Shown: positions 18,874 to 56,669 of the stretch, in pieces
How positions within the stretch are numbered: the stretch's first letter is position 1
Layout: every line of letters starts with the position of its first letter
NCBI GenBank assembly: GCA_964507845.1
Contig: CAZDQW010000001.1
Coordinates: forward strand, 76,702-140,701
Direction: 5' to 3'
Length of the DNA: 64,000 bases
DNA from: an uncultured Megasphaera sp.
GTDB lineage: Bacteria; Bacillota; Negativicutes; Veillonellales; Megasphaeraceae
Notes under the pieces: generated by a model
The model's database searches: none
What the model saw: the letters and a program-made list of their open reading frames with translations, nothing else
What the model was told of the DNA's origin: nothing
Program-made: the position numbers and the translations under genes

Positions 18874-21165
18874 CTATGCTTTATGGCGGTTCCGATTAAA
18901 ATTAATCAAGCATCCTGCCTTGATGATTTCTTTTTCATCTTCCGTCATGTCCGCAACGTACAACGATATTTCCTTCATGGTTTTGCCGACAACATACGCT
19001 TTGATATGCTGCATATCGCCGTCAAGCGCTTTCTTGATATCCGGTATAAAGATATAGTCGCCTACTTCAAAATCCGGTTCATCCTTCATCTGGAACGGAA
19101 GCATTCCCCAATTGATGACATTGGAACGATACCGTTTTGTTGCATACTCCCGGCAAATATTTGCCAGACCGCCGAGAACGCGCTGGCAGCTGGCAGCTTG
19201 TTCTCTTGCCGATCCGTCCCCCGGTCTGACGCAGTAAATAACGCTGCCGATTTCCGTTTTCGCCATGTCGGCATCTGAAAATGCTTCCTGTATTTTATCA
19301 AATACCTCTTTCAGCGACGCATCGGCCGCTACGGGGCATTGTCCGGCCAAACGGGTCCGTTCAACGGCATCGACGGCTTTTGCTCTCCCAACATATGCAG
19401 GGTCGCGTCGGGACAGCGTAAACTCAGCCAGTCCCAGAGGATTGGAACGATATGATGACGTTTCGCCTGACGGAATAAGTTCATCCGTCGTCGTAACGGC
19501 ATCCATGATTTTAGAACATACTTTAAGTAAAATATCATCAGCCAGCGCTTCCATCGCAGGCCAATCTTTTATATTGGGACCATATACAAGTTCTTGTTGC
19601 TCGTCGGCGCTGCCGAATCCTTGATATATCCTGGCTTCATAAGAGGAATTATCATACTCATAAAACGGTTCAACATAATCGTCCAAATACCCTTCCGCCG
19701 ACGTAAGAACGCCGCCGTTCGCAGCCGTAGCAGCAATGGAACGAGCGTCCATAAGAGCTACTGCTGAAAACTGGCCATTCCCCGGCTTGGAACCTTCGCG
19801 ATTCGGGAAATTACGCGTCGTATGACGGATACTGAATGCATTATTAGCCGGCGTGTCGCCGGCGCCAAAACAGGGGCCGCAAAAAGCCGTCTTGAATACA
19901 GCGCCGGCAGCTAACAGATCGGCAATAGCTCCTTTTCGTACCAAATCCATATATACGGGCTGTGACGACGGGTAAACATCCAATGTAAACATATCCGAAC
20001 CGCAGCTGGCATTTTTCAGGATATGCGCCGCAGCCATAATATTTCCGTAGTTGCCGCCTGCGCAGCCGGCGATAATGCCCTGCTGCACACAGAGCTTTCC
20101 ACGAACAATCTTATCGGTCAAACTGTAATGAAGTTCCGGATTACTCATTCGTTTATTGATATTTTCTTCTGTTTCGTGAAGGATGTCATATAAATTTTCA
20201 TTCAGTTCGTCAATCGTAAAGGCGTTGCTCGGATGCATGGGCATAGCGATCATAGGTTTTATCTTGCTGAGATCTACATAGATGACGCCGTCATAATAGG
20301 CTACGTCGGCAGGATTGAGCTCTTTATAGTCCTGCGGCCTGCCATGCTGCGTCAGATAGGCTTTCGTATCGTCATCAGTCCGCCACACCGACGATAAACA
20401 TGTCGTTTCTGTCGTCATGACGTCAACACTGTTTCGGTAATCCGTATTCATCGACGAAACGCCGGGCCCGATAAATTCCATGACTTTATTTTTTACATAT
20501 CCGTTTTTAAACACGGCGCCGACAATGGCTACGGCAATATCATGGGGCCCTGCGGCGGGACTTGGTTTTCCTGTCAAGTATACGGCCACGACACCGGGAT
20601 ATGCCACATCATATGTGTCGCGCAGGAGCTGCTTAACCAGCTCGCCGCCGCCTTCGCCGACAGCCATGGTACCGAGCGCTCCATAGCGCGTATGACTGTC
20701 GGAGCCGATGATCATCTTTCCGCAGCTGGCCATTTTTTCACGCATATACTGATGGATAACGGCAATATGAGGAGGTACGAAAATACCTCCGTATTTTTTA
20801 GCCGCCGATAAGCCGAAAACATGATCATCTTCGTTAATGGTACCGCCGACGGCACATAAAGAATTATGACAGTTTGTCAGCACATACGGCAAAGGAAATG
20901 TTTCCATTCCGGATGCTTTCGCTGTCTGAATAATCCCTACAAACGTAATATCATGAGACGCCATGGCATCAAATTTTATTTTTAACCGCTCCATCGAACC
21001 GGATGTATTATGGGCCTTTAAAATGGAATACGCGATTGTTCCCTTACGGGCTTCTTCTTTATCTGCCGGTTTTCCCGTAAGCTGCTTTACTTTTTCCGCA
21101 TCCTTTTCAGCCACTAATTCCGTACCGTGTACTAAATACGCACCGCCTTCATATAATTGAATCAT
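18874..21165 (-). CDS. Aconitate hydratase (YbhJ-like aconitase family)
   Basis: SHDIT, GSDSHTR, [4Fe-4S] ligands IAGCAGG and [16 protein letters not shown], swivel domain TTDELIPSG and [10 protein letters not shown]. Confidence 0.9.
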
Positions 21166-21473
21166 CGTATCTCTCCTTTACTGCGTCATATTCTGATTCA
21201 CTCTGCAACTTTCTTATCCTGAAATTTACGCAAATAATTTTCACAATATAAAAACTTTTTTTCAATATACATCTTATTATATCATAATTATTCTTACACT
21301 GACTACCCTTCATTGTTTATTTGCTATCATTCTTTATATTTTATTTTTCCCATAATTATGCTATAATAACTTATGCTCTTCACAAGAGAACACCGTTTTT
21401 CGGTAGAAGAATTTTTATAAATATCAGAGAATAATTAAAAGTATTGCTGTTTATGAGAAAGTGAGGAATCATT

Positions 21474-22814
21474 TTGGACAATAATATTTATTTAGCCCAA
21501 TTTTACGGTAAGTCCCAAAATTATACACAGATTCCCCGTGAATGGTTTTCAAAATACGGCGTCAAAAGAGGGCTCCGAAACGAAGATCACACCGGTGTTC
21601 TCGTCGGCCTGACTCGAATTGCCGATGTCGTCGGCTATAAAAGAGACGCTGAAGGAAATAAAATAGACTGCGACGGCATATTATATTATCGCGGCATTGA
21701 CGTGCAGGATTTGATAAAAAAGGAAAAGTATAACGGATACTTATACGAAGAAGCCTGTTTTCTTCTGTTGTTCGGCTATCTGCCGACGCGGGAAGAACTG
21801 AATTCATTCTGTACTATCCTGCAGGACAACTACGATCTTCCCGATGATTTTCTGGAAATGAATCTTCTGCGCCTTCCCGGCAAAAATTTAATGAATAAAT
21901 TGCAGCATTCGCTCATTACGTTATACAACTACGACGAAGATCCTGATAATACGGACGTGTATCAGACTCTTCGCAAAGGCCTTAATATCCTGAGCAAGAT
22001 GCCTTCCATTGCCGTTTACGCATATATGTCCAAAATTCATTACTATAATCGTCAAAGTCTGGTTATTCATTATCCCCGCAAAGATTATTCCACAGCGGAA
22101 AATATTTTGTCCATGCTCCGCCTTGACGGAACCTTTACTCCAAAAGAAGCGCAGCTTCTCGATCTGCTCCTCTTCCTTCACGCCGATCACGGCGGCGGCA
22201 CCAACTCAACGTTTACGAACGTCGTTGTCTCGTCAACCAATACAGACCTCTATTCCAGCATGGCCAGTTCTATCGGCGCCTTAAAAGGACCTCGTCACGG
22301 CGGCGCCAACGTCCGCGTTTCTCAAATGATGGAAAACATCATGGACGCTATAGGAACCCGAGCCACGGATGCGCAGATAAAAGACGTCATCGAACGGATC
22401 CTCCACGGCCAATTCCGCCATCAGGATAAGTTAATTTACGGATTCGGCCATGCCGTTTATACATTATCGGATCCGCGGGCTGAAATTATGCGCCATTACT
22501 GCGGCACGCTGGCGGCAGAGAAAAACATGGAGGATATTTACGAGTTCTACACGAGATTTGAAAAAATTGCCGCAAAAACATTAAGTGAAGAAAAAAATGC
22601 CAACATGTGCAGCAACGTCGATTTCTACAGTGGTTTTGCCTATCACATGCTCGGTATTCCCCGAGACTTATATACGCCGCTGTTCGTCATCAGCCGTATG
22701 GTAGGCTGGCTGGCACACAATATCGAACATAAGCTTTACGACAACCGCATTGTCCGGCCGGCGGCCAAGTACGTCGGAGAATTGATGGATTACACAGCGA
22801 TGGAGGACAGATAA
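21474..22814 (+). CDS. gltA: Citrate synthase (Si-type)
   Basis: YYRGIDV, HADHGGG, GPRHGGAN, GFGHAVY and NVDFYSG catalytic residues. TTG start. Confidence 0.9.
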   Translation: MDNNIYLAQFYGKSQNYTQIPREWFSKYGVKRGLRNEDHTGVLVGLTRIADVVGYKRDAEGNKIDCDGILYYRGIDVQDLIKKEKYNGYLYEEACFLLLFGYLPTREELNSFCTILQDNYDLPDDFLEMNLLRLPGKNLMNKLQHSLITLYNYDEDPDNTDVYQTLRKGLNILSKMPSIAVYAYMSKIHYYNRQSLVIHYPRKDYSTAENILSMLRLDGTFTPKEAQLLDLLLFLHADHGGGTNSTFTNVVVSSTNTDLYSSMASSIGALKGPRHGGANVRVSQMMENIMDAIGTRATDAQIKDVIERILHGQFRHQDKLIYGFGHAVYTLSDPRAEIMRHYCGTLAAEKNMEDIYEFYTRFEKIAAKTLSEEKNANMCSNVDFYSGFAYHMLGIPRDLYTPLFVISRMVGWLAHNIEHKLYDNRIVRPAAKYVGELMDYTAMEDR

Positions 22815-22816
22815 CC

Positions 22817-23812
22817 ATGAAAACGATCACCGTCTTTAAAGGCGACGGCATTGGCCCTGAAATTACAGATGCCGTCATTAATATTTTACAAGCAGCGGAT
22901 GCGCCTTTGGCCTATGAATTTTTTAACGTCGGCGCCGCTGAATATGAAAAAAACGGCGAACTAATTCCCGAAGCCGCTTTTGCATCCTTTGAAAGGACAA
23001 AAGTTCTCTTAAAATCACCGATTACGACGCCTGTCGGCAGCGGGTTCCGTTCCCTAAACGTAACGCTTCGCAATAAGTACGACTTATACGCCAACATCAG
23101 GCCGGCAAAATCAAATGCCGCCGTTTCTACGCCCTTTCCCGACATAGATATTGTGACATTCCGTGAAAATACGGAAGACCTCTATATCGGCGCCGAATAC
23201 AAAATGAATGAAGATACGGTACAAGCCGTCAAGCTTATTACGCGCAAAGCCAGCGAACGTATCATCCGCGCTGCTTTTGAATACGCCGCCGCCAACGGGC
23301 GAAAAAAAGTAACCTGTGTCCATAAAGCCAATATCTTAAAAATGAGCGACGGCATGTTCCTCCGAATTTTTAAAGAAATTGCCGGCGATTATCCCAACAT
23401 TGAAAGCGACGACAAAATTGTCGACAATACATGTATGCAGCTTGTCATGTATCCTCAAAATTTTGACGTCTTGGTCATGCCGAATCTGTACGGAGACATC
23501 GTATCCGACCTGACAAGCGGCCTCATCGGAGGTCTCGGTTTGCTTCCATCCATGAACGTCGGCCACGAGTATGCCATGTTTGAAGCTGTTCACGGCAGCG
23601 CTCCCGACATTGCCGGAAAGCACATTGCCAATCCGACGGCATTGCTTTGGTCCGCCTGCCTGATGCTGGATTATATCGGCGAAACGGCTGTTTCAGCCAA
23701 TATCCGCCGGGCCGTCGATACTGTATTGGCTGAAAAACTTCACCTGACGCCTGACCTCGGCGGAACTGCCAAAACCGAAGAATACTGCGACGCCGTTATT
23801 TCTCATTTATAA
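22817..23812 (+). CDS. icd: Isocitrate dehydrogenase (NAD-type, isocitrate/isopropylmalate DH family)
   Basis: GDGIGPEI, KSPITTP..FRSLNVTLR, FRENTED, VHKANI, NLYGDIVSDL, FEAVHGSAPDIAG. 2 bp after citrate synthase. Confidence 0.88.
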   Translation: MKTITVFKGDGIGPEITDAVINILQAADAPLAYEFFNVGAAEYEKNGELIPEAAFASFERTKVLLKSPITTPVGSGFRSLNVTLRNKYDLYANIRPAKSNAAVSTPFPDIDIVTFRENTEDLYIGAEYKMNEDTVQAVKLITRKASERIIRAAFEYAAANGRKKVTCVHKANILKMSDGMFLRIFKEIAGDYPNIESDDKIVDNTCMQLVMYPQNFDVLVMPNLYGDIVSDLTSGLIGGLGLLPSMNVGHEYAMFEAVHGSAPDIAGKHIANPTALLWSACLMLDYIGETAVSANIRRAVDTVLAEKLHLTPDLGGTAKTEEYCDAVISHL

Positions 23813-25201: not shown

Positions 25202-26389
25202 TTACGGGTTGACTTTAGTAACAAAAGCCTGATTTCCGTCTTTGAAGGTCAAGATGACCGCCGATTTTACCGGGTCATGGAATTCGTTGTAGCTGATATT
25301 ACCGGAAACACCGTTGAAGTCTTTGAGTTGTTCCAAAGCTTCGCGTACTTTATCTTTATCATCACTGTTGGCATTTTTAATAGCTTGCGCCAAAATCATG
25401 ACGCTGTCATACGAAAGAGCTGCCGGAGAATCGGGTCTCAAGTTAAACATTTTCTGATAGTTCGCAACGAAATTCTGTACAACTTCCGATGTATCATCCG
25501 ATGAATAGTGGTTGCCGAAGTAGCAGTCTACCAAATTAGCTGCGCCGGCAATTTCAGCCAATTTTGCGCTGTCCCATCCGTCGCCGCCGACGATCGGAGC
25601 CGTAATGCCCATTTCACGAGCTTGCTTAATGATCATGCCGACTTCCTGATAGTAGCCGGGAACGAAAATAACGTCAGGATTTGCGGCTTTAATCTTCGTC
25701 AAAGCGGCTTTGAAATCCGTATCTTTCTGGAGGTAAGCTTCTGCTGCAACAATGCTTCCGCCGCCGTTTTCAAATCCTTCTATAAAGAATTTCTGAAGTC
25801 CTTTGGAATAATCGCTCGAGTTGTCAACGTAAACAGCAGCCGTTTTAGCGTTAAGTTCCTTCGCTACAAAATCAGCCATTACCTTTCCTTGGAACGTATC
25901 GATGAAAGCGCCGCGGAAAACATAGGGCCGCGTCTGATTCGTATCCGGATTAACGGTAATCGCCGGGTTCGTTCCGAAAGACGAAATCATCGGAATTTTT
26001 TCCTGGTCGGCTGTAGCAACGCAGGCCAGCGCGCAGCTCGATGTTTCAGGCCCAACAATGAACTGAGCCTCTTCATCTAACAGCTTCTGCATGGCGTTGA
26101 CGGCTTCCGTTGCTTCGCTCCGATTATCGCCGTAAACAACTTCAACTTTTTTGCCCAACAAACCGCCGGCATCATTGATTTCCTTTACGGCCAGCTCAAC
26201 GCCGTTTTTACCGGATATGCCGTACGATGCGCTGTTGCCGGTCATGGCCAAATTGGCGCCGATTTTAATGACGTCCGAATTACCGGAACTGCTGGAACTG
26301 CCGGAACTGCCGCAGCCGGTAAGTATAGCCGCAACGGATACTACAGTTAAAGCTGTCATTACGCATTTTTTCAAACTTCTTATTTTCAT
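25202..26389 (-). CDS. HAAT/branched-chain amino acid ABC transporter substrate-binding lipoprotein (LivJ/K family)
   Basis: Lipobox LTGC, Gly/Ser linker, IKIGANLAMTG, GDGWD, SYDSVMIL. Confidence 0.92.
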   Translation of the reverse strand: MKIRSLKKCVMTALTVVSVAAILTGCGSSGSSSSSGNSDVIKIGANLAMTGNSASYGISGKNGVELAVKEINDAGGLLGKKVEVVYGDNRSEATEAVNAMQKLLDEEAQFIVGPETSSCALACVATADQEKIPMISSFGTNPAITVNPDTNQTRPYVFRGAFIDTFQGKVMADFVAKELNAKTAAVYVDNSSDYSKGLQKFFIEGFENGGGSIVAAEAYLQKDTDFKAALTKIKAANPDVIFVPGYYQEVGMIIKQAREMGITAPIVGGDGWDSAKLAEIAGAANLVDCYFGNHYSSDDTSEVVQNFVANYQKMFNLRPDSPAALSYDSVMILAQAIKNANSDDKDKVREALEQLKDFNGVSGNISYNEFHDPVKSAVILTFKDGNQAFVTKVNP

Positions 26390-26462: not shown

Positions 26463-27173
26463 CTAACCGCCTAAATATACTCTCCGAACCTCTTCGCTTT
26501 CAGCCAGGTCCTTCGCTTTGCCCTGCAAGGATATGCTTCCCGTTTCAAGGACGTACGCATAATCGGAAATTGCCAGCGCCATGCGGGCATTCTGTTCTAC
26601 CAGCAGGACTGTCGTACCGCGATTATGAATTTCTTTTACCATATCGAATATTTCTTTTACTAAAATCGGCGCCAAACCCATGGACGGTTCATCCAGCAAA
26701 AGCAATTTCGGCTGACTCATCAACGCCCGTCCCATGGCCAGCATTTGCTGTTCGCCGCCGGATAATGTCCCTGCCGATTGGGAAATTCGTTCCCGAAGTC
26801 TGGGAAACCGTTCGAATATCGATTCCATAGTCTTGGATATTTCTTTTTTATCTTTCCGCGTAAACGCGCCCATTTCCAAGTTTTCACGAACGGACATATC
26901 GGCAAAAACACGCCGCCCTTCCGGACAATGAGATATGCCTATCTTTACGATAGATTCGGCACTGGTGCTTTGAATTGGTCTCCCCATAAAGGTAATGGAA
27001 CCGGTTTTTGACCGAAGCAGGCCGGAAATCGTCCGCAATGTCGTCGTTTTCCCTGCGCCGTTCGCCCCGATAAGGCTGACGATCTGCCCTTCTTCTACCG
27101 TAAGGCTGATTCCTTTCAGCGCATGAATAGCGCCATAGTATACATTGATATCATTCAATTCCAACATGCTCAT
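26463..27173 (-). CDS. livF: Liv-type ABC ATPase
   Basis: GANGAGKTT, PEGRRVF, LSGGEQQM, LLDEPSMGL. Confidence 0.93.
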   Translation of the reverse strand: MSMLELNDINVYYGAIHALKGISLTVEEGQIVSLIGANGAGKTTTLRTISGLLRSKTGSITFMGRPIQSTSAESIVKIGISHCPEGRRVFADMSVRENLEMGAFTRKDKKEISKTMESIFERFPRLRERISQSAGTLSGGEQQMLAMGRALMSQPKLLLLDEPSMGLAPILVKEIFDMVKEIHNRGTTVLLVEQNARMALAISDYAYVLETGSISLQGKAKDLAESEEVRRVYLGG

Positions 27174-27176
27174 ATA

Positions 27177-27944
27177 TCATACCTCCTCGCCTAAGTACGC
27201 CCGGATAACATCGGCGTTAGACTTGATTTCCTGCGGTATGCCTTTGGCCAATATTTTGCCGAATTCCAAAACGTAAAGCCGTTCGCAAATCCCCATAACC
27301 AGAGACATGTCATGTTCTATGAGCAGTATCGTCAAATTAAACCTCTTGCGTATTCCTTCAATCAGCGACATTAAATCGTTCGTTTCCTGCGGATTCATGC
27401 CGGCTGCCGGTTCATCAAGCAGCAGTAATTTCGGCCGCGCCGCCAAAGCTCTGGCAATTTCCAGCCGCCGCTGCAAGCCATACGGCAAACTTCCGGCCAA
27501 TTCGTCTTTTTTATCGTCCAGATGGAAAATCTTAAGCAAATCAACGGCTTCTTTTTCTATCCGTTCTTCTTCTTTTCCATACCGGCCGATACGCAGGATC
27601 GCTTCGGCAACATTGTATTTTACCAGATAACTGCAGGCAATTTTTACATTGTCCAGTACGGTCAAATTTCCGAACAAACGAATATTTTGGAAAGTCCGGG
27701 CAATACCGCGCTGCGTAATTTGATATGGTTTCATTCCCGTTAAATTCGTTCCGTCAAACTCAATCGTACCCGTCGTCGGCTGATACACTCCTGTCAGTAA
27801 GTTGAACGCCGTCGTTTTTCCCGCGCCGTTCGGACCAATGAGGCCTACCAGTTCACCCCGGTTCAATTCTATATTAAAATCCTGTACAGCTTTAATGCCG
27901 CCAAAGGAAATAGATACATTATTTGCTTTCAGCAACGGTTCCAT
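27177..27944 (-). CDS. livG: Liv-type ABC ATPase
   Basis: GPNGAGKTT, RTFQNIRLF, LPYGLQRRLE, LDEPAAG, IEHDM. Confidence 0.93.
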   Translation of the reverse strand: MEPLLKANNVSISFGGIKAVQDFNIELNRGELVGLIGPNGAGKTTAFNLLTGVYQPTTGTIEFDGTNLTGMKPYQITQRGIARTFQNIRLFGNLTVLDNVKIACSYLVKYNVAEAILRIGRYGKEEERIEKEAVDLLKIFHLDDKKDELAGSLPYGLQRRLEIARALAARPKLLLLDEPAAGMNPQETNDLMSLIEGIRKRFNLTILLIEHDMSLVMGICERLYVLEFGKILAKGIPQEIKSNADVIRAYLGEEV

Positions 27945-28899
27945 TGCCTTTTCCTCCCTTCTTCCACTTGGACAGCATAAATTCCGCCAGTTCTTTGTTC
28001 CCTAATATACCGTACGGCCGGTACAGCATGAGGAAGATAAGCAAGAGTGCGTATACAATCATGCGGTATTCAGGGTAACTCTGCATCGCAGCGGCGATAA
28101 ATGTAAGAATGATCGCGCCAATGACAGAGCCGGATAAACTTCCCAAACCGCCCAGAACGACCATCGTCATGATATCGAAAGAACGCATGAACGTAAAGCT
28201 CGCCGGATGGGCAATACCGAAGAAATGAGAAAACAACGAACCTGCAAGCCCGGCAAACATCGCCGAAACAGTAAAAGCAAACACTTTGAACATCGTTGTA
28301 TGGATGCCCATGGCTTCAGCAGCAATGGCATTTTCACGAACAGCCAAGCAAGCCCGGCCCTGGTTGGAATTAATGATATTCTTTAAAATAAACAGGACGA
28401 TAATCATGCAGATGAAGATCCATGGAAAGGTAGCTTCCCGCGGAATACCCGTCATGCCTGACGCGCCGCCGACTTTCTGGATATTCAAAATGCATATGCG
28501 GATAATTTCGCCCATCCCCAGCGTTGCAATAGCCAGATAATCGCCTTGAAGCCGCAGCGTCGGCAAACCGACAAGCAGTCCCAAAACACCTGCCGCAATA
28601 GCTCCGCCTATAATGCTGACGCCAAAAGGCATATGGAAAAACATGGTGCATACGGCAGATACATAGGCGCCAATAGCCATAAAACCAGCATGGCCCAGTG
28701 AAAACTGTCCTGTAACGCCGTTGATGAGATTCAAGCTTGACGCCAAGATAACATTGATGCACATTAACGATATATTAAGCCGCCAAAAAGGCGATAAAAT
28801 CCGTTCGGCCATCAAAAACTGAAAGATCGCAAATACGATTACGGCGATGACCAGAAAAATAGCGTCTTGTTTTCGCAATTGTTTTAGCATCATCATCAC
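27919..28899 (-). CDS. livM: Liv-type ABC permease
   Basis: GQFSLGHAGF, RLQGDYLAIATLG, VLGGLGS, RPYGILG. Confidence 0.92.
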   Translation of the reverse strand: MMMMLKQLRKQDAIFLVIAVIVFAIFQFLMAERILSPFWRLNISLMCINVILASSLNLINGVTGQFSLGHAGFMAIGAYVSAVCTMFFHMPFGVSIIGGAIAAGVLGLLVGLPTLRLQGDYLAIATLGMGEIIRICILNIQKVGGASGMTGIPREATFPWIFICMIIVLFILKNIINSNQGRACLAVRENAIAAEAMGIHTTMFKVFAFTVSAMFAGLAGSLFSHFFGIAHPASFTFMRSFDIMTMVVLGGLGSLSGSVIGAIILTFIAAAMQSYPEYRMIVYALLLIFLMLYRPYGILGNKELAEFMLSKWKKGGKGNGTVAESK

Positions 28900-29793
28900 C
28901 TATACCTTTTCATGCTGATTCTTACCGAACAGGCCTGTCGGCTTAATAAGCAAAATAATAATCAAAATAGCAAAAGCTGCGGCGTCACGGAACGTGGAAG
29001 AAATAAACCCGCTGACCATTGCTTCCACGATGCCCAAAATAATACCGCCGGTCATCGCGCCCGGAATAATGCCGATACCGCCGAGAACAGCGGCAACAAA
29101 GGCTTTCAAGCCCGGCATAATCCCCATCAGCGGTTCAATGGAGTTATAATAAATTCCAACCAAAACACCGGCAGCGCCTGCAAGACTCGAACCAATACAG
29201 AACGTAAAAGAAATCGTCTTGTCTACGTTAATCCCCATAAGCTGCGCCGCATCAGGATCGTACGAAACAGCCCGCATGGCTTTCCCCATTTTCGTATAAT
29301 TAACAACATAAGTAAGAACCAACATCAGCACGATGGAAGTTAAAAAGATGACGATTTGCTGAAAAGAAATAACGAGACCGCCGATATTGTATATGCTGTT
29401 ATTCATAACCATCGGAAATGTCCGGGGCTGCGGCGTTAAAAATAGCATGGTCGTATATTCGAGAAAGAAACTTACGCCGATAGCCGTCGTTAAAATAGCA
29501 ATTTTCGGACTGTGCCGCAAAGGCTTGTACGCTAACCGTTCAATGATCATGCCTAAAACGCCTGTCATGGCCATAGCTACGATAATCGCCGGAGCAAAAG
29601 GAAGTCCGAGAACAGTGATAGCAAAAAAACCTGCATATGCGCCGATCATATATACGTCGCCATGAGCAAAGTTGATCAGCTTCATAATACCGTATACCAT
29701 CGTATATCCTAATGCGATCAATGCATAAATGCTTCCAAGAGATATACCGTTTATGAGCTGCTGCATAAATTGCAAACCTAATGTCCCTTCCAC
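28900..29793 (-). CDS. livH: Liv-type ABC permease
   Basis: LINGISLGSIYALIALGYTMVYG, INFAHG, GKAMRA, VLGGIG, KPTGLFG. Confidence 0.93.
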   Translation of the reverse strand: MEGTLGLQFMQQLINGISLGSIYALIALGYTMVYGIMKLINFAHGDVYMIGAYAGFFAITVLGLPFAPAIIVAMAMTGVLGMIIERLAYKPLRHSPKIAILTTAIGVSFFLEYTTMLFLTPQPRTFPMVMNNSIYNIGGLVISFQQIVIFLTSIVLMLVLTYVVNYTKMGKAMRAVSYDPDAAQLMGINVDKTISFTFCIGSSLAGAAGVLVGIYYNSIEPLMGIMPGLKAFVAAVLGGIGIIPGAMTGGIILGIVEAMVSGFISSTFRDAAAFAILIIILLIKPTGLFGKNQHEKV

Positions 29794-29848: not shown

Positions 29849-30169
29849 TTAAATCAGCTGCTGGCTAATCGTATATCCCTCATCAACACGATTAATAAAT
29901 ATTCTTCCATCACCATGGGTGCCTTTCGGTTTTGTCTGGCACACGGAGATAATCGTCGTAACGACTTTCGTCTTATGTTCGTCGTGAACAACGAGGTAAA
30001 CCATTTCTTTCGGCATATCATCATACCTTATGCCGTTAACGACAACTCCGCGCTGTTTTCCCCGGCCTGAAACATGCCAGTGAGTTATCCCATAAAGCCC
30101 CAGTTCGGCTAATGCATCTTTCAGCGCCTTCAATTTTTCGCGCCGTATGATCGCTTTAATTTCTACCAT
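29849..30169 (-). CDS. PII-family signal transduction protein, NifI1-like with short T-loop
   Basis: AIIR, GRGKQRG, MPKE, GDGRIF. T-loop is 4 residues shorter than GlnB. Confidence 0.88.
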   Translation of the reverse strand: MVEIKAIIRREKLKALKDALAELGLYGITHWHVSGRGKQRGVVVNGIRYDDMPKEMVYLVVHDEHKTKVVTTIISVCQTKPKGTHGDGRIFINRVDEGYTISQQLI

Positions 30170-30378
30170 AGTCCCTTTCCCTTCTTTCCCCTAAACTTCA
30201 TCAAAAAAAAATACGACGAATTATTTTTCCTAAAAATAACATCGTCGTTATAAAAAAATATTTTATTTTTTTGATGAAATAAGTTTATCATTTAAATTTA
30301 TAAAATACAACTGGATATATGCACAATTTTTTTTTACATTTTACATAAATTCAAAAAAACATTTATGTTATTCCATAA

Positions 30379-30415
30379 TAAATACAGACCTGGACAATTC
30401 CAGGTCTGTATTTTT
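30379..30415 (-). terminator. Terminator after the class III aminotransferase
   Basis: AATACAGACCTGGA/TCCAGGTCTGTATT stem flanked by A/T tracts. Confidence 0.8.
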
Positions 30416-30436
30416 GTTTACATCTATCCATGCCTT

Positions 30437-31762
30437 TTATTTTATCATATCGTCTACTTCAGTTAATACTTCATCCATAATGGCCATGGCTTCTCTTAGT
30501 TGTTCTTCTGTAATAATGAGAGGCGGAGCCACCATAATGGTATTTTCATGGGAGTACGTATAAAATCCTTTGTTTAGTAATTTTTTCATAATAGACGGCA
30601 TGATGCCTTCCGGATCCTGCCCATAAGGAACGAGAGCCTCTTTTGTTTCCTTGTCTTTTACTAACTCAATGGCCGACCATAAGCCGATATAACGGACATC
30701 TCCGACACAAGCATGTTTTTCTTTCAGTTCTTCTTCCAGTTCGCCGAGAAGTTTGCCGACAGTATTGACATTTCCCAGAATATCAGCTTTATCATAATAA
30801 TTCAAGCAGGCGATGCCGGCAGCGCAGGCCAACGGATGGCCGCTGTATGTAAGCCCGCAGGACAGCACATGATCATCAAAGAAAGCCGCTATATCTTTCG
30901 ATACGGCAACACCGCCAAGCTGGACATACCCGCAGGTAATACCTTTGGCAAATGTTACGATGTCAGGCTTGACGTTAAAGTGTTCAAAGGCAAACATCTT
31001 GCCTGTACGGCACCATCCGGCCATGACTTCATCGCAAACCATCATGATGCCGAACTCATCGCATATTTTGCGCACGCCTTCCAGATACCCTTTCGGCGGA
31101 ATAATAATTCCGTTGGAACCGGTAATGGTTTCCATGAAAATGGCGGCAATCGAACCGGGATTTTCATAAACAACTTGTTCACGCAGCTTTGCCAGATAAA
31201 ATTTCGTAGCAGCTTCTTCATCGGGAAACTCAATAGCTTCCCGGTATACATATGGATCAAAAAATTTGATAAAACCGGGGATTCCAGGTTCCAACGCATA
31301 GCGGCGCGGTTCGCCGGTTAAATTTCCGGCGCCGAAAGACGAACCATGGTAACTGCGGTAACGGCTCATTATTTTATTCCGGCCCGTATACATCCGGGCT
31401 ATTTTTACGGCATTTTCATTTGCATCAGCGCCGCCGTTCGTAAAAAATACCTTGCCCATGTTATCCGGCATGCGCTCAATAACCATCTTGGCCAATTTAG
31501 CCCTCGGTTCCACGGCAAATCCCGGCGACAAAAAACAATATTTATCGGCTTGTTCTTTAATCGCTTCGACAATATCGCGATTACCGTGGCCGACATTGGA
31601 ATTAACCAGTTCCGACGACATATCCATATACCGATTGCCTTCGCTGTCCCATAAATAAATGCCTTCTGCCTTTGTAATAACCAGCGGATTGATTCCTTTC
31701 TGCTTCGACCAGGAATGTAAATTATATTTTAAATCCATTTCCCGTATTTCTTGTCCTGTCAC
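30437..31762 (-). CDS. Class III PLP omega-amino acid aminotransferase (beta-alanine/taurine/GABA type)
   Basis: YMDMSS, FFTNGGADANE, YHG, DEVMAGWCRTG, PLP lysine in TFAKG, SGHP. Start likely GTG 31762 by SD spacing; uncertain. Confidence 0.9.
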   Translation of the reverse strand: MTGQEIREMDLKYNLHSWSKQKGINPLVITKAEGIYLWDSEGNRYMDMSSELVNSNVGHGNRDIVEAIKEQADKYCFLSPGFAVEPRAKLAKMVIERMPDNMGKVFFTNGGADANENAVKIARMYTGRNKIMSRYRSYHGSSFGAGNLTGEPRRYALEPGIPGFIKFFDPYVYREAIEFPDEEAATKFYLAKLREQVVYENPGSIAAIFMETITGSNGIIIPPKGYLEGVRKICDEFGIMMVCDEVMAGWCRTGKMFAFEHFNVKPDIVTFAKGITCGYVQLGGVAVSKDIAAFFDDHVLSCGLTYSGHPLACAAGIACLNYYDKADILGNVNTVGKLLGELEEELKEKHACVGDVRYIGLWSAIELVKDKETKEALVPYGQDPEGIMPSIMKKLLNKGFYTYSHENTIMVAPPLIITEEQLREAMAIMDEVLTEVDDMIK

Positions 31763-31904
31763 TGTAAACATCTCCTTTATTCTGTTACTAAAAAACACTG
31801 ATTATTGTCTTTCTGAAAGTTATTTTTTTCATCTTATTATATACACAATAAAACACCTATTTCAATCTGTAAAAGAACAGTGTTTTTTGTGCAGACAAAC
31901 AAAT

Positions 31905-33041
31905 TTATTTTTTATATAAAAGATCTCTGATTTTAAAAGCCAGTACCATTGCTGTTTTATCTTCTTCGTCATATAAATCTTTTCCTGTTATTTTTTCAAT
32001 TTTGTTAAATTTATATAAAATAGTATTACGGTGTACAACTTCATGAAGAGCTGTTTCCTTAATGCTGCACTGGTGAAATAAATAATACCTCAACGTTTCC
32101 GTCAAAGAAGAACGATGAGCTTTATCATAAGCAGCCAGCGCTCCCAAAGTCTCTTCATAAAAATCCTGCAATACAGATACAGGAGTGCCATTAAGAAGCA
32201 ATTTATATAAACCGGCATCTCTATATGCGGCGACAGGCCGTTCCGGACCTGTCAAAGCCTGAATTGCTGCGGCTTTTCTATAACTTTCCGACAATTTTGA
32301 AATAGGCGATACAGCATCTCCTACACTGATCGTCACCGCAATGCCGTGACTTAATAAATACGTATATATTTCTTTTACTTTATCCAAAGCCGCTGCCTCG
32401 TCGCCAAATAAAATACCGGCAATAGCACCTCCGTACGGAATAGCGTACACCTTTTCCAGCAAACCGAGGAGAGCCAAAATTTCATCCGTATCCTGTTTTT
32501 CGCTGGCGGCTTTTAAAACAGATACGCAAAATGTACCGGAAATATCTATTCCCTGCTGTTCCAAAGCAGCGCAAGCCGGGCCGCAGTGATCGGGCGCCAT
32601 AATAATAGATACAAAGTACTGCAGCAGACGCTGTTCTTTCTTTTCTTCTTCCATAATAAACTGACATAAATATCGCGTAATATCGACGAGCCGGACATCC
32701 CACGGAAGAATAAATAACGGCAGTCCCGCTCCCTCGCAAAATTGTGATACTTCATCGGGAATCTCCTTGATATAAGAGCCTATATTGACAACGAGTCCCG
32801 CAGCGCCGCCTTGATGGAGTTGTGTTGCATAATCCATCAGCCATTCTGAATTTTCGCAAAGTAATCCCGTAAAAAATACAAGTTCCCCGCCTTGAAGAAA
32901 AGATGCAGCTTCTTTGCTTTCAATCATATGTATCCACGTCACAGTACGGTCAAAGCCTGCCTGCCCTGCCAAGTACTGCATACGATAAATATGAACGCTT
33001 TTACTATACAAAAATCTTACAGTTACAGCCACGCCCTTCAT
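31905..33041 (-). CDS. PucR-family transcriptional regulator
   Basis: LAGQAGFDRTVTWIHMIE..LQGGELV N-domain; C-terminal HTH TLRYYL..HRNTILYK. Confidence 0.9.
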   Translation of the reverse strand: MKGVAVTVRFLYSKSVHIYRMQYLAGQAGFDRTVTWIHMIESKEAASFLQGGELVFFTGLLCENSEWLMDYATQLHQGGAAGLVVNIGSYIKEIPDEVSQFCEGAGLPLFILPWDVRLVDITRYLCQFIMEEEKKEQRLLQYFVSIIMAPDHCGPACAALEQQGIDISGTFCVSVLKAASEKQDTDEILALLGLLEKVYAIPYGGAIAGILFGDEAAALDKVKEIYTYLLSHGIAVTISVGDAVSPISKLSESYRKAAAIQALTGPERPVAAYRDAGLYKLLLNGTPVSVLQDFYEETLGALAAYDKAHRSSLTETLRYYLFHQCSIKETALHEVVHRNTILYKFNKIEKITGKDLYDEEDKTAMVLAFKIRDLLYKK

Positions 33042-56532: not shown

Positions 56533-56554
56533 CAAAACATGACAAGTACATAAT

Positions 56555-56628
56555 CAATGCAGGACTGACGGAATTAAGTGGAATAACCACGTGGACTGCA
56601 TGGTGAAAAAGCGCCGACCGTCTGGGCA
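56555..56628 (+). ncRNA. ZMP/ZTP (pfl) riboswitch aptamer
   Basis: P1 TGCAG/CTGCA enclosing GACTGACGGA, P2 GTGG-AATAA-CCAC, A-rich linker, 3' element GCCGACCGTCTGGGC; pseudoknot GACGG (56567-71)/CCGTC (56618-22). Confidence 0.85.
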
Positions 56629-56669
56629 AAGAGTACATCTGTTCTTTGGCTGGGCGATCGGCGTTTTTT
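56612..56669 (+). terminator. Riboswitch expression-platform terminator overlapping the 3' aptamer
   Basis: CGCCGACCGTCTGGGCAAAGA pairs with TCTTTGGCTGGGCGATCGGCG, followed by TTTTTT. Confidence 0.82.

Follow-up and report, generated by a model that had tools for sequence, protein, structure and literature searches.

The gene at positions 29849 to 30169 (minus strand) of the window, i.e. the whole stretch of 64,000 nucleotides that was analysed, encodes a PII protein of 106 amino acids that by its sequence descends from NifI1, and it heads an operon for a Liv-type ABC importer in a genome (94% complete) with neither NifI2 nor NifDK. The protein has the PII fold and has retained ligand-site residues, and the gene is co-inherited with the adjacent transporter genes in an exclusive and conserved manner. 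By analogy with known PII targets we propose that it may be a sensor of 2-oxoglutarate, ATP and ADP that would reversibly gate the adjacent importer of an alternative nitrogen source, a reading to which we give an even chance of being correct.

The open reading frame matched the Pfam family P-II (PF00543) with 70.6 bits against a cut-off of 25 (E 1.6e-19); the NCBIfam models for GlnB and GlnK gave 46 and 35 bits, below their cut-offs of 202 and 181. An AlphaFold2 model built with 15 homologs had a mean pLDDT of 82.8 and the beta-alpha-beta-beta-alpha-beta order of a ferredoxin-like fold (strands at residues 2-9, 29-33, 54-61 and 89-94, helices at 10-22 and 63-77). When this model was searched with Foldseek, structures of GlnZ, GlnK and PII came out on top with a probability of 1.00. 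The canonical features of GlnB and GlnK, a full-length T-loop and the C-loop residues R101 and R103, are absent. The translation contains G35-R-G-K38-Q39-R-G41 and P53-K54, and in the alignment the T-loop is four residues shorter than that of the GlnK of the same genome. T100 and S102 occupy the positions equivalent to R101 and R103 of GlnB, and the C-terminus reads YTISQQLI. The preliminary description of this DNA had noted the short T-loop, the retention of Q39 and of K54, the equivalent of GlnB K58, and the replacement of the C-terminal RxRTG motif, and was accurate in these points. Among the 15 closest homologs G35, G37, K38, Q39, G41, K54, G86-D-G-R89 and F91 are invariant.

The best solved relative of the window PII is a PII chain of 105 amino acids, 9p1x_H (E 8e-21), followed by GlnK and GlnB at 1e-14 or weaker. 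By its length we read chain H as the NifI1 of the nitrogenase-NifI supercomplex of M. acetivorans (bioRxiv 10.1101/2025.09.09.675011). A homolog scan with one genome per species yielded 80 related loci. Five of them are from Megasphaera with 66-79% identity to the window PII, and most of the others share 39-50%. At 53 of the 80 loci nifH lies immediately upstream and a NifI2-type gene immediately downstream; these relatives are bona fide NifI1. The T-loop of the window PII has the same length as that of 52 nifH-adjacent NifI1 proteins and carries the NifI1 motif.

In a tree of 168 rows the NifI group including the window PII was split from GlnK by a branch with 99% support. Together with the match to 9p1x_H, this phylogeny, which the preliminary description had called for, bears out its NifI1-type assignment. 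The Liv-linked PII proteins formed one clade on a long branch, again with 99% support. The first tree that included NifI2 had placed this clade beside NifI2 (83%) with a warning of long-branch attraction, a position that was superseded after the removal of NifI2. In the second, more careful tree, from which NifI2 was left out to avoid long-branch attraction, the window PII clade stood on its own (100/100 support) and was joined with a second orphan clade, likewise devoid of NifI2 (100/97 support). Common to both orphan clades are W31, E97 and the loss of G105. Compared with NifI1 the window PII clade has R10 in place of a proline, H30, W31, an invariant E97 and a B-loop that is one residue longer; the Thr-Gly after YTIS is gone and the C-terminus is shortened. 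The clade is small, as its R10-T-H-W signature has one full-length representative among 1.84 billion proteins clustered at 50%. In spite of its descent the window PII should not be filed as a NifI1, because of the four features that define the NifI1 system it lacks three, namely the location in a nif operon, the NifI2 partner and the NifDK target.

From the lack of the C-loop arginines the preliminary description had deduced an altered nucleotide sensing. This argument had to be dropped. Among the 52 nifH-adjacent bacterial NifI1 the R101-equivalent is threonine in 51 and the R103-equivalent serine in 50. Because threonine and serine are thus the rule there, the absence of the RxR motif is ancestral to bacterial NifI1, and we rejected it as a peculiarity of the window PII, whose other ligand-site residues are invariant. 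NifI2 has kept the second C-loop arginine in 25 of 26 cases. The window PII is probably a homotrimer, and all three of its ligand sites would then be devoid of a C-loop arginine. It would represent a natural experiment on nucleotide binding by a PII trimer that has this arginine in none of its sites.

The Megasphaera assembly (2.06 Mb in 67 contigs; the genus is shared with M. cerevisiae) contains three PII genes, i.e. a glnK beside amtB on contig 30, the window PII gene and a gene for a DUF1538-linked protein of 221 amino acids. None of these three PII matches in the 94% complete genome was of the NifI2 type. True NifDK was not found in the genome either, as all PF00148 matches had 134 bits or less and the NCBIfam models nifD, nifE and nifH stayed below their cut-offs. 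Contig 4 has two NifH-like and four NifD/K-like genes, none of which reaches the nifH, nifD and nifE cut-offs; they encode nitrogenase-like enzymes and not nitrogenase. No PII gene is present in the nitrogenase-like clusters of contig 4. Furthermore, of the 39 family genomes 37 have the NifD-like gene and 7 a PII of the window type. Because the two do not correlate, the window PII is unrelated to the NifD-like gene, and the nitrogenase-like enzymes were rejected as its partner. Among the open reading frames annotated from 18874 to 41349 there was no nifI2, nif or amtB gene near the PII gene, and every nif-like, amtB or further PII match of the whole-genome searches was located outside the window, in agreement with what had been claimed for the window at the outset. 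The genome-wide check proposed at that time gave a mixed result. NifI2 and NifDK are indeed absent, and because of this the PII can be called repurposed, as had been suggested; an amtB-glnK pair and two nitrogenase-like clusters are present elsewhere in the genome.

Some features of these other loci may be recorded here. The contig-4 clusters (L012, 4710-16913) consist of two sets, each with one NifH-like and two NifD/K-like genes, which flank hypF-hypD-hypE and are followed by hydF. The GlnK of the genome (L001, 1486-1848, contig 30) has the T-loop base G-C-G-S-Q-K-G and a histidine at the position of GlnB K58, both of which are unusual for a canonical GlnK. In the 221-residue protein (L003, 12-1797, contig 38) a C-terminal PII domain (41 bits) is found, and its gene directly follows that of a DUF1538 membrane protein. 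With it the genome has three pairings of PII and a membrane protein, of which this one is unrelated to the others.

The genes downstream of the PII gene, all on the minus strand, encode components of an importer of the HAAT family of ABC transporters. A gap of 55 bp without a terminator separates the PII stop codon from the start of livH (28900-29793; BPD_transp_2 170 bits, NCBIfam LivH 263 bits), which is preceded by a ribosome-binding site of its own. This LivH-type permease is followed by a LivM-type permease (27919-28899; BPD_transp_2 147 bits, LivM 205 bits) and by the LivG-type and LivF-type ABC ATPases, which are candidates for a contact with PII. LivG (27177-27944) matched ABC_tran, BCA_ABC_TP_C and the LivG model (297 bits), and LivF (26463-27173) the LivF and UrtE models with 266 and 227 bits, i.e. 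it is of the same family as UrtE. A LivJ-like substrate-binding protein (25202-26389; Peripla_BP_6 207 bits) is closest to binders of branched-chain amino acids (PDB 4gnr, 253 bits). The operon contains the sole HAAT permease set of its genome.

Upstream of the PII gene and on the same strand lies a gene for a class III aminotransferase of the Toa type (30437-31798; PDB 6jix 539 bits, E 1e-160; NCBIfam PRK06062 556 bits). It aligns end to end, from query residue 10 onwards, with BkToa (6jix), a taurine:2-oxoglutarate aminotransferase. Translation probably begins some 10 codons further in than the listed GTG, as residue 10 is a methionine and the orthologs have 441-446 amino acids. Further upstream follows a transcriptional regulator of the PucR family (31905-33041, minus strand; Pfam PucR and HTH_30), which accompanies the aminotransferase in both orphan PII clades.

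The AT-rich intergenic region of 267 bp between the aminotransferase and the PII gene (30170-30436, minus strand) contains a terminator, a promoter-like block and a hairpin. The terminator, a 15-bp palindrome at 30380-30413, is placed after the aminotransferase gene, and the promoter-like block is kept in three close relatives. The hairpin (ACGACGA...TCGTCGT) with a U-tract at 30185-30245 (minus strand) is located just 5' of the ribosome-binding site of the PII gene, and the fold of the leader had a z of -4.46. Five relatives have a hairpin in the same position, the two more distant ones with a different stem sequence. The hairpin may serve as an attenuator, or it may terminate part of the transcripts that run from the aminotransferase gene into the PII-liv genes. 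No RNA family or riboswitch was recognized in the leader by Rfam at gathering level, and a permissive search produced chance-level matches only. Elsewhere in the window, at 56551-56634 (plus strand), there is a ZMP/ZTP riboswitch with 60 bits against a gathering score of 39.

On its other side the operon adjoins genes for aconitase, citrate synthase and isocitrate dehydrogenase (18874-23812), the route to 2-oxoglutarate. The same three genes adjoin the operon in L013-L015 and in L019, which have a distantly paralogous ABC system. Such an adjacency may have no meaning beyond synteny or may connect the operon functionally with the supply of 2-oxoglutarate.

The conservation of the link between PII and the ABC genes was examined in 39 species genomes of the family at identities of at least 66% for PII, at least 73% for the orthologous binding protein and at least 83% for the aminotransferase ortholog. 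PII and the orthologous binding protein were both found in the same 7 genomes. Neither occurred alone in any of the remaining 32, which have binding-protein paralogs of 33-39% identity only. The aminotransferase ortholog was present in the same 7 genomes and in one fragmented assembly. Metagenomic relatives of the PII with 80, 67, 60, 56 and 55% identity all adjoin Liv-type ABC genes. The arrangement varies. At most loci including those of Megasphaera the PII gene is the first of the operon, before livH, and in L019 it is the last, after livF. The PII proteins with 55-60% identity are linked to a second HAAT system (L017-L021), whose proteins are 27-37% identical to those of the window and which comes with an M20 peptidase or a CN-hydrolase. 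In L024 and L025 (genomes G036 and G037) the PII gene lies beside the ABC genes, while the aminotransferase gene is about 30 kb away and no PucR gene is found within 9 kb. Because of the co-occurrence in 7 of 7 and 0 of 32 genomes, the adjacency down to 55% identity and the varied gene orders, we concluded that the linkage is conserved, exclusive and robust to rearrangement. Strain-specificity, which the preliminary description had listed among the points that would speak against its proposal, was thus not observed.

Three of the matches in this comparison contain one in-frame TAA each, i.e. a binding-protein match in G022 (C15, 55464-56621) and aminotransferase matches in G001 (C156, 15060-16397) and G031 (C232, 1371-2708). 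These matches may run past the true end of the gene or may reflect decay of the cluster.

In the second orphan clade the PII gene is situated directly beside a gene for a Glt-symporter-like transporter; it precedes this gene in L110 and follows it in L029, L040, L088 and L112. The clusters (L029, 3963-13625; L110, 2285-10499; L112, 1-8952; L040; L088) comprise TauE, PucR, a Toa-like class III aminotransferase, a TauF-type Fe-ADH, the transporter and PII, and Amidohydro_3. They occur in Coriobacteriaceae, Bulleidia, Eubacteriales and one Megasphaera (G017). The Fe-ADH of L029 matched the sulfoacetaldehyde reductase BkTauF (PDB 6jko) with 550 bits, and the Amidohydro_3 family includes taurine-selective metal-dependent bile salt hydrolases (PMC13081988). 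Because of the Toa, TauF and Amidohydro_3 matches these gene sets are taurine nitrogen-assimilation clusters as defined in PMC6616044. A text search of the two taurine-cluster papers (PMC6616044, PMC13081988) gave no mention of PII. In the genome of the window PII a TauF-type reductase was not found, the best match to the TauF ortholog of L029 being 31-32% identical, and taurine is therefore no more than a candidate for the transported substrate. A TauE-family gene is present in this genome at an unlinked position.

Two further arrangements were seen. In Blautia producta and B. celeris (L039, 4081-16049; L042) a NifI1-like gene and one for a NifI2-like protein of 108 amino acids occur with urtA-B-C-D-E, a CN-hydrolase and urease genes, the NifI-type pair being flanked by the genes of a urea ABC importer on one side and those of urease on the other. 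In Succinivibrio MAGs (L028, 6264-9339; L031) a PII gene of the second orphan clade directly follows argG and argH, the genes for argininosuccinate synthase and lyase. From the Liv-linked, the Glt-symporter-linked and the Blautia urt contexts we conclude that NifI-type PII proteins outside of nif operons recur beside importers of alternative nitrogen sources.

Cyanobacterial PII binds UrtE, NrtC and NrtD and is released by 2-oxoglutarate (PMC6603209, PMC10945777). It locks NrtBCD via its lateral face, which is made up of the T-loop base, the B-loop and the C-loop (PMC6603209, PMC10945777). Likewise, GlnK bound to the transporter AmtB is released by 2-oxoglutarate (summarised in bioRxiv 10.1101/2025.09.09.675011). 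In the gating mechanism that we propose, the NifI1-descended PII, rid of its NifI2 and nitrogenase partners, would work as a homotrimer, sense 2-oxoglutarate together with ATP and ADP, and reversibly bind the adjacent Liv-type importer, most plausibly at its ATPase subunits LivG and LivF. With sufficient nitrogen, i.e. at low 2-oxoglutarate, PII would block uptake. A rise in 2-oxoglutarate would make it let go of the importer, and the imported compound would feed the neighbouring Toa-type aminotransferase, with 2-oxoglutarate as the amino acceptor that is converted to glutamate. In this way import would be confined to conditions of scarce nitrogen and ample acceptor, an appealing arrangement given that the aminotransferase inherited along with PII consumes 2-oxoglutarate. 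The conserved genomic linkage with a transporter operon, a trait of the transporter-gating class of PII proteins, is present here. Moreover, because of the PII topology we infer that H30 and W31 at the T-loop base, the B-loop insertion and the C-terminus would be located in the regions that form the lateral interface of the NrtC complex.

On the other hand, several observations argue against gating. LivG and LivF are of ordinary length and have no regulatory extension like that of NrtC. Some members of the sister clade have other neighbours, e.g. argG-argH in Succinivibrio. The transporter varies across the joint orphan clade, which includes two distant HAAT systems and one secondary transporter, and of the neighbours the Toa-type aminotransferase and PucR change less; therefore a transcriptional or an enzymatic target is possible. 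PII would then control the catabolic pathway by binding to the PucR-family regulator or to the aminotransferase, and expression or flux would follow 2-oxoglutarate. GlnK, which binds TnrA or AmtR, and PII acting through PipX and NtcA provide models for this. The role of 2-oxoglutarate as co-substrate of the aminotransferase, as deduced from the 6jix match, would suit such a control as well. Yet a transporter gene is always the direct neighbour of the PII gene, on one side or the other, and in G036 and G037 the PII gene has stayed by the ABC genes at a distance from the aminotransferase and PucR genes, so that we regard pathway control as unlikely.

A PII that is ligand-impaired or differently liganded would be a constitutive accessory subunit of the importer or a sensor of a signal other than ATP and 2-oxoglutarate. 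PotN reportedly does not bind 2-oxoglutarate, and the ligands of SbtB are adenine nucleotides and cAMP. Such a change could be reflected in the absence of both C-loop arginines and in the clade-specific changes near the binding cleft, i.e. R10, H30, W31, the longer B-loop and the C-terminus without the TG of NifI1. However, the threonine and serine in the C-loop are common to bacterial NifI1, and Q39, K54, G-x-G-K-Q and GDGRIF are invariant in the clade. Structures of NifI speak for both sides: the pocket between two NifI1 subunits was empty in the supercomplex of M. acetivorans (bioRxiv 10.1101/2025.09.09.675011), whereas in the NifI of M. infernus all three sites, that between the NifI1 subunits included, were occupied by MgATP and 2-oxoglutarate. 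On balance we consider impaired or altered ligand binding quite improbable. The two NifH-like and four NifD/K-like genes and the glnK of the genome would leave room for a residual NifI1 acting on the two nitrogenase-like (NFL) enzyme sets of contig 4, or for a general nitrogen regulator that is located here by chance and possibly forms mixed trimers with GlnK. This is hardly credible, as the NifD-like gene and PII differ in their occurrence (37 and 7 of 39 family genomes), the NFL clusters are devoid of a PII gene, the PII-ABC linkage is exclusive and conserved, and NifI1 needs NifI2 to act on nitrogenase (bioRxiv 10.64898/2025.12.07.692841).

Thus gating of the adjacent importer is the reading that we favor. 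A wider version of it is more tentative, and we would rather doubt than endorse it at present. In anaerobes of the gut and other fermentative anaerobes NifI1 could have given rise to a dedicated, NifI2-independent PII subfamily that as a whole is the 2-oxoglutarate-responsive gatekeeper for the scavenging of nitrogen from taurine-type compounds (omega-amines). The importer that such a PII binds would differ with the cluster, being a Liv-type ABC transporter or a Glt-symporter-like carrier, and the PII would couple uptake to the supply of the co-substrate of the aminotransferase. If true, this would define a new class of PII targets and add a regulatory layer to the microbial use of taurine and bile-salt nitrogen.

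Few metabolic sensors are as widespread as the PII proteins, whose list of targets is still growing. The present case shows that the nitrogenase-specific NifI1 branch has entered transporter operons that serve alternative nitrogen sources, unaccompanied by NifI2. The system is defined and tractable, as it consists of a single small protein together with an ABC importer and an aminotransferase. It also connects signalling by PII with gene clusters recently described in gut bacteria, those for taurine nitrogen assimilation and for taurine-selective bile-salt hydrolases. The preliminary description had called the pairing of PII with an ABC transporter little described in this form; the pairing has precedents in PII-UrtE/NrtC/NrtD (PMC6603209, PMC10945777) and PotN-PotABCD. 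Because such pairings have been described, the kind is not new. For a NifI-type PII with ABC transporters or taurine clusters no prior description was found in the open-access literature, where absence is not proof; what thus appears undescribed is a NifI1-derived, NifI2-independent subfamily in Toa-type nitrogen-scavenging clusters.

Among the known systems NifI1 (9p1x_H; M. infernus, M. maripaludis) is the closest relative of the window PII in sequence, with 40-50% identity to the bacterial nifH-adjacent proteins. T-loop length and motif (GRGKQxG...YDExPK), GDGRIF and the C-loop YTIS are common to both. The window PII differs in its place outside of a nif operon, in a genome without NifI2 and NifDK, and in the residues specific to its clade (R10 instead of proline, H30, W31, E97, one additional B-loop residue, no C-terminal TG). 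With the taurine clusters (Toa/TauF, PMC6616044; PMC13081988) the window shares the aminotransferase that matches BkToa with 539 bits, and the sister PII clade resides inside Toa-TauF-amidohydrolase-PucR-TauE clusters. In contrast to these, the window cluster is devoid of a TauF-type reductase and of an amidohydrolase and has a Liv-type ABC importer.

Three systems combine PII and a transporter. In lactic acid bacteria PotN-PotABCD (Iskhakova et al., FEBS J 2022, as cited in PMC10945777) is, according to that citation, likewise a PII-family protein of Firmicutes that is encoded in the operon of an ABC importer for a nitrogenous substrate. By the same description it is set apart as another PII subfamily with another ABC family (PotA type). 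In GlnK-AmtB, too, the PII gene adjoins the transporter gene, and GlnK blocks AmtB when nitrogen is sufficient. Yet GlnK plugs the AmtB channel with a long T-loop, while the T-loop of the window PII is four residues shorter and its partner would be an ABC transporter. The cyanobacterial PII-Nrt and PII-Urt systems (PMC10945777, PMC6603209) resemble the window in that a PII is paired with an ABC transporter that takes up an alternative nitrogen source; UrtE is a member of the LivF family. The cyanobacterial PII is a general protein of the GlnB type that is encoded elsewhere and has many targets. In contrast, the window PII is a dedicated NifI1-derived paralog encoded inside the operon of the importer that it would regulate.
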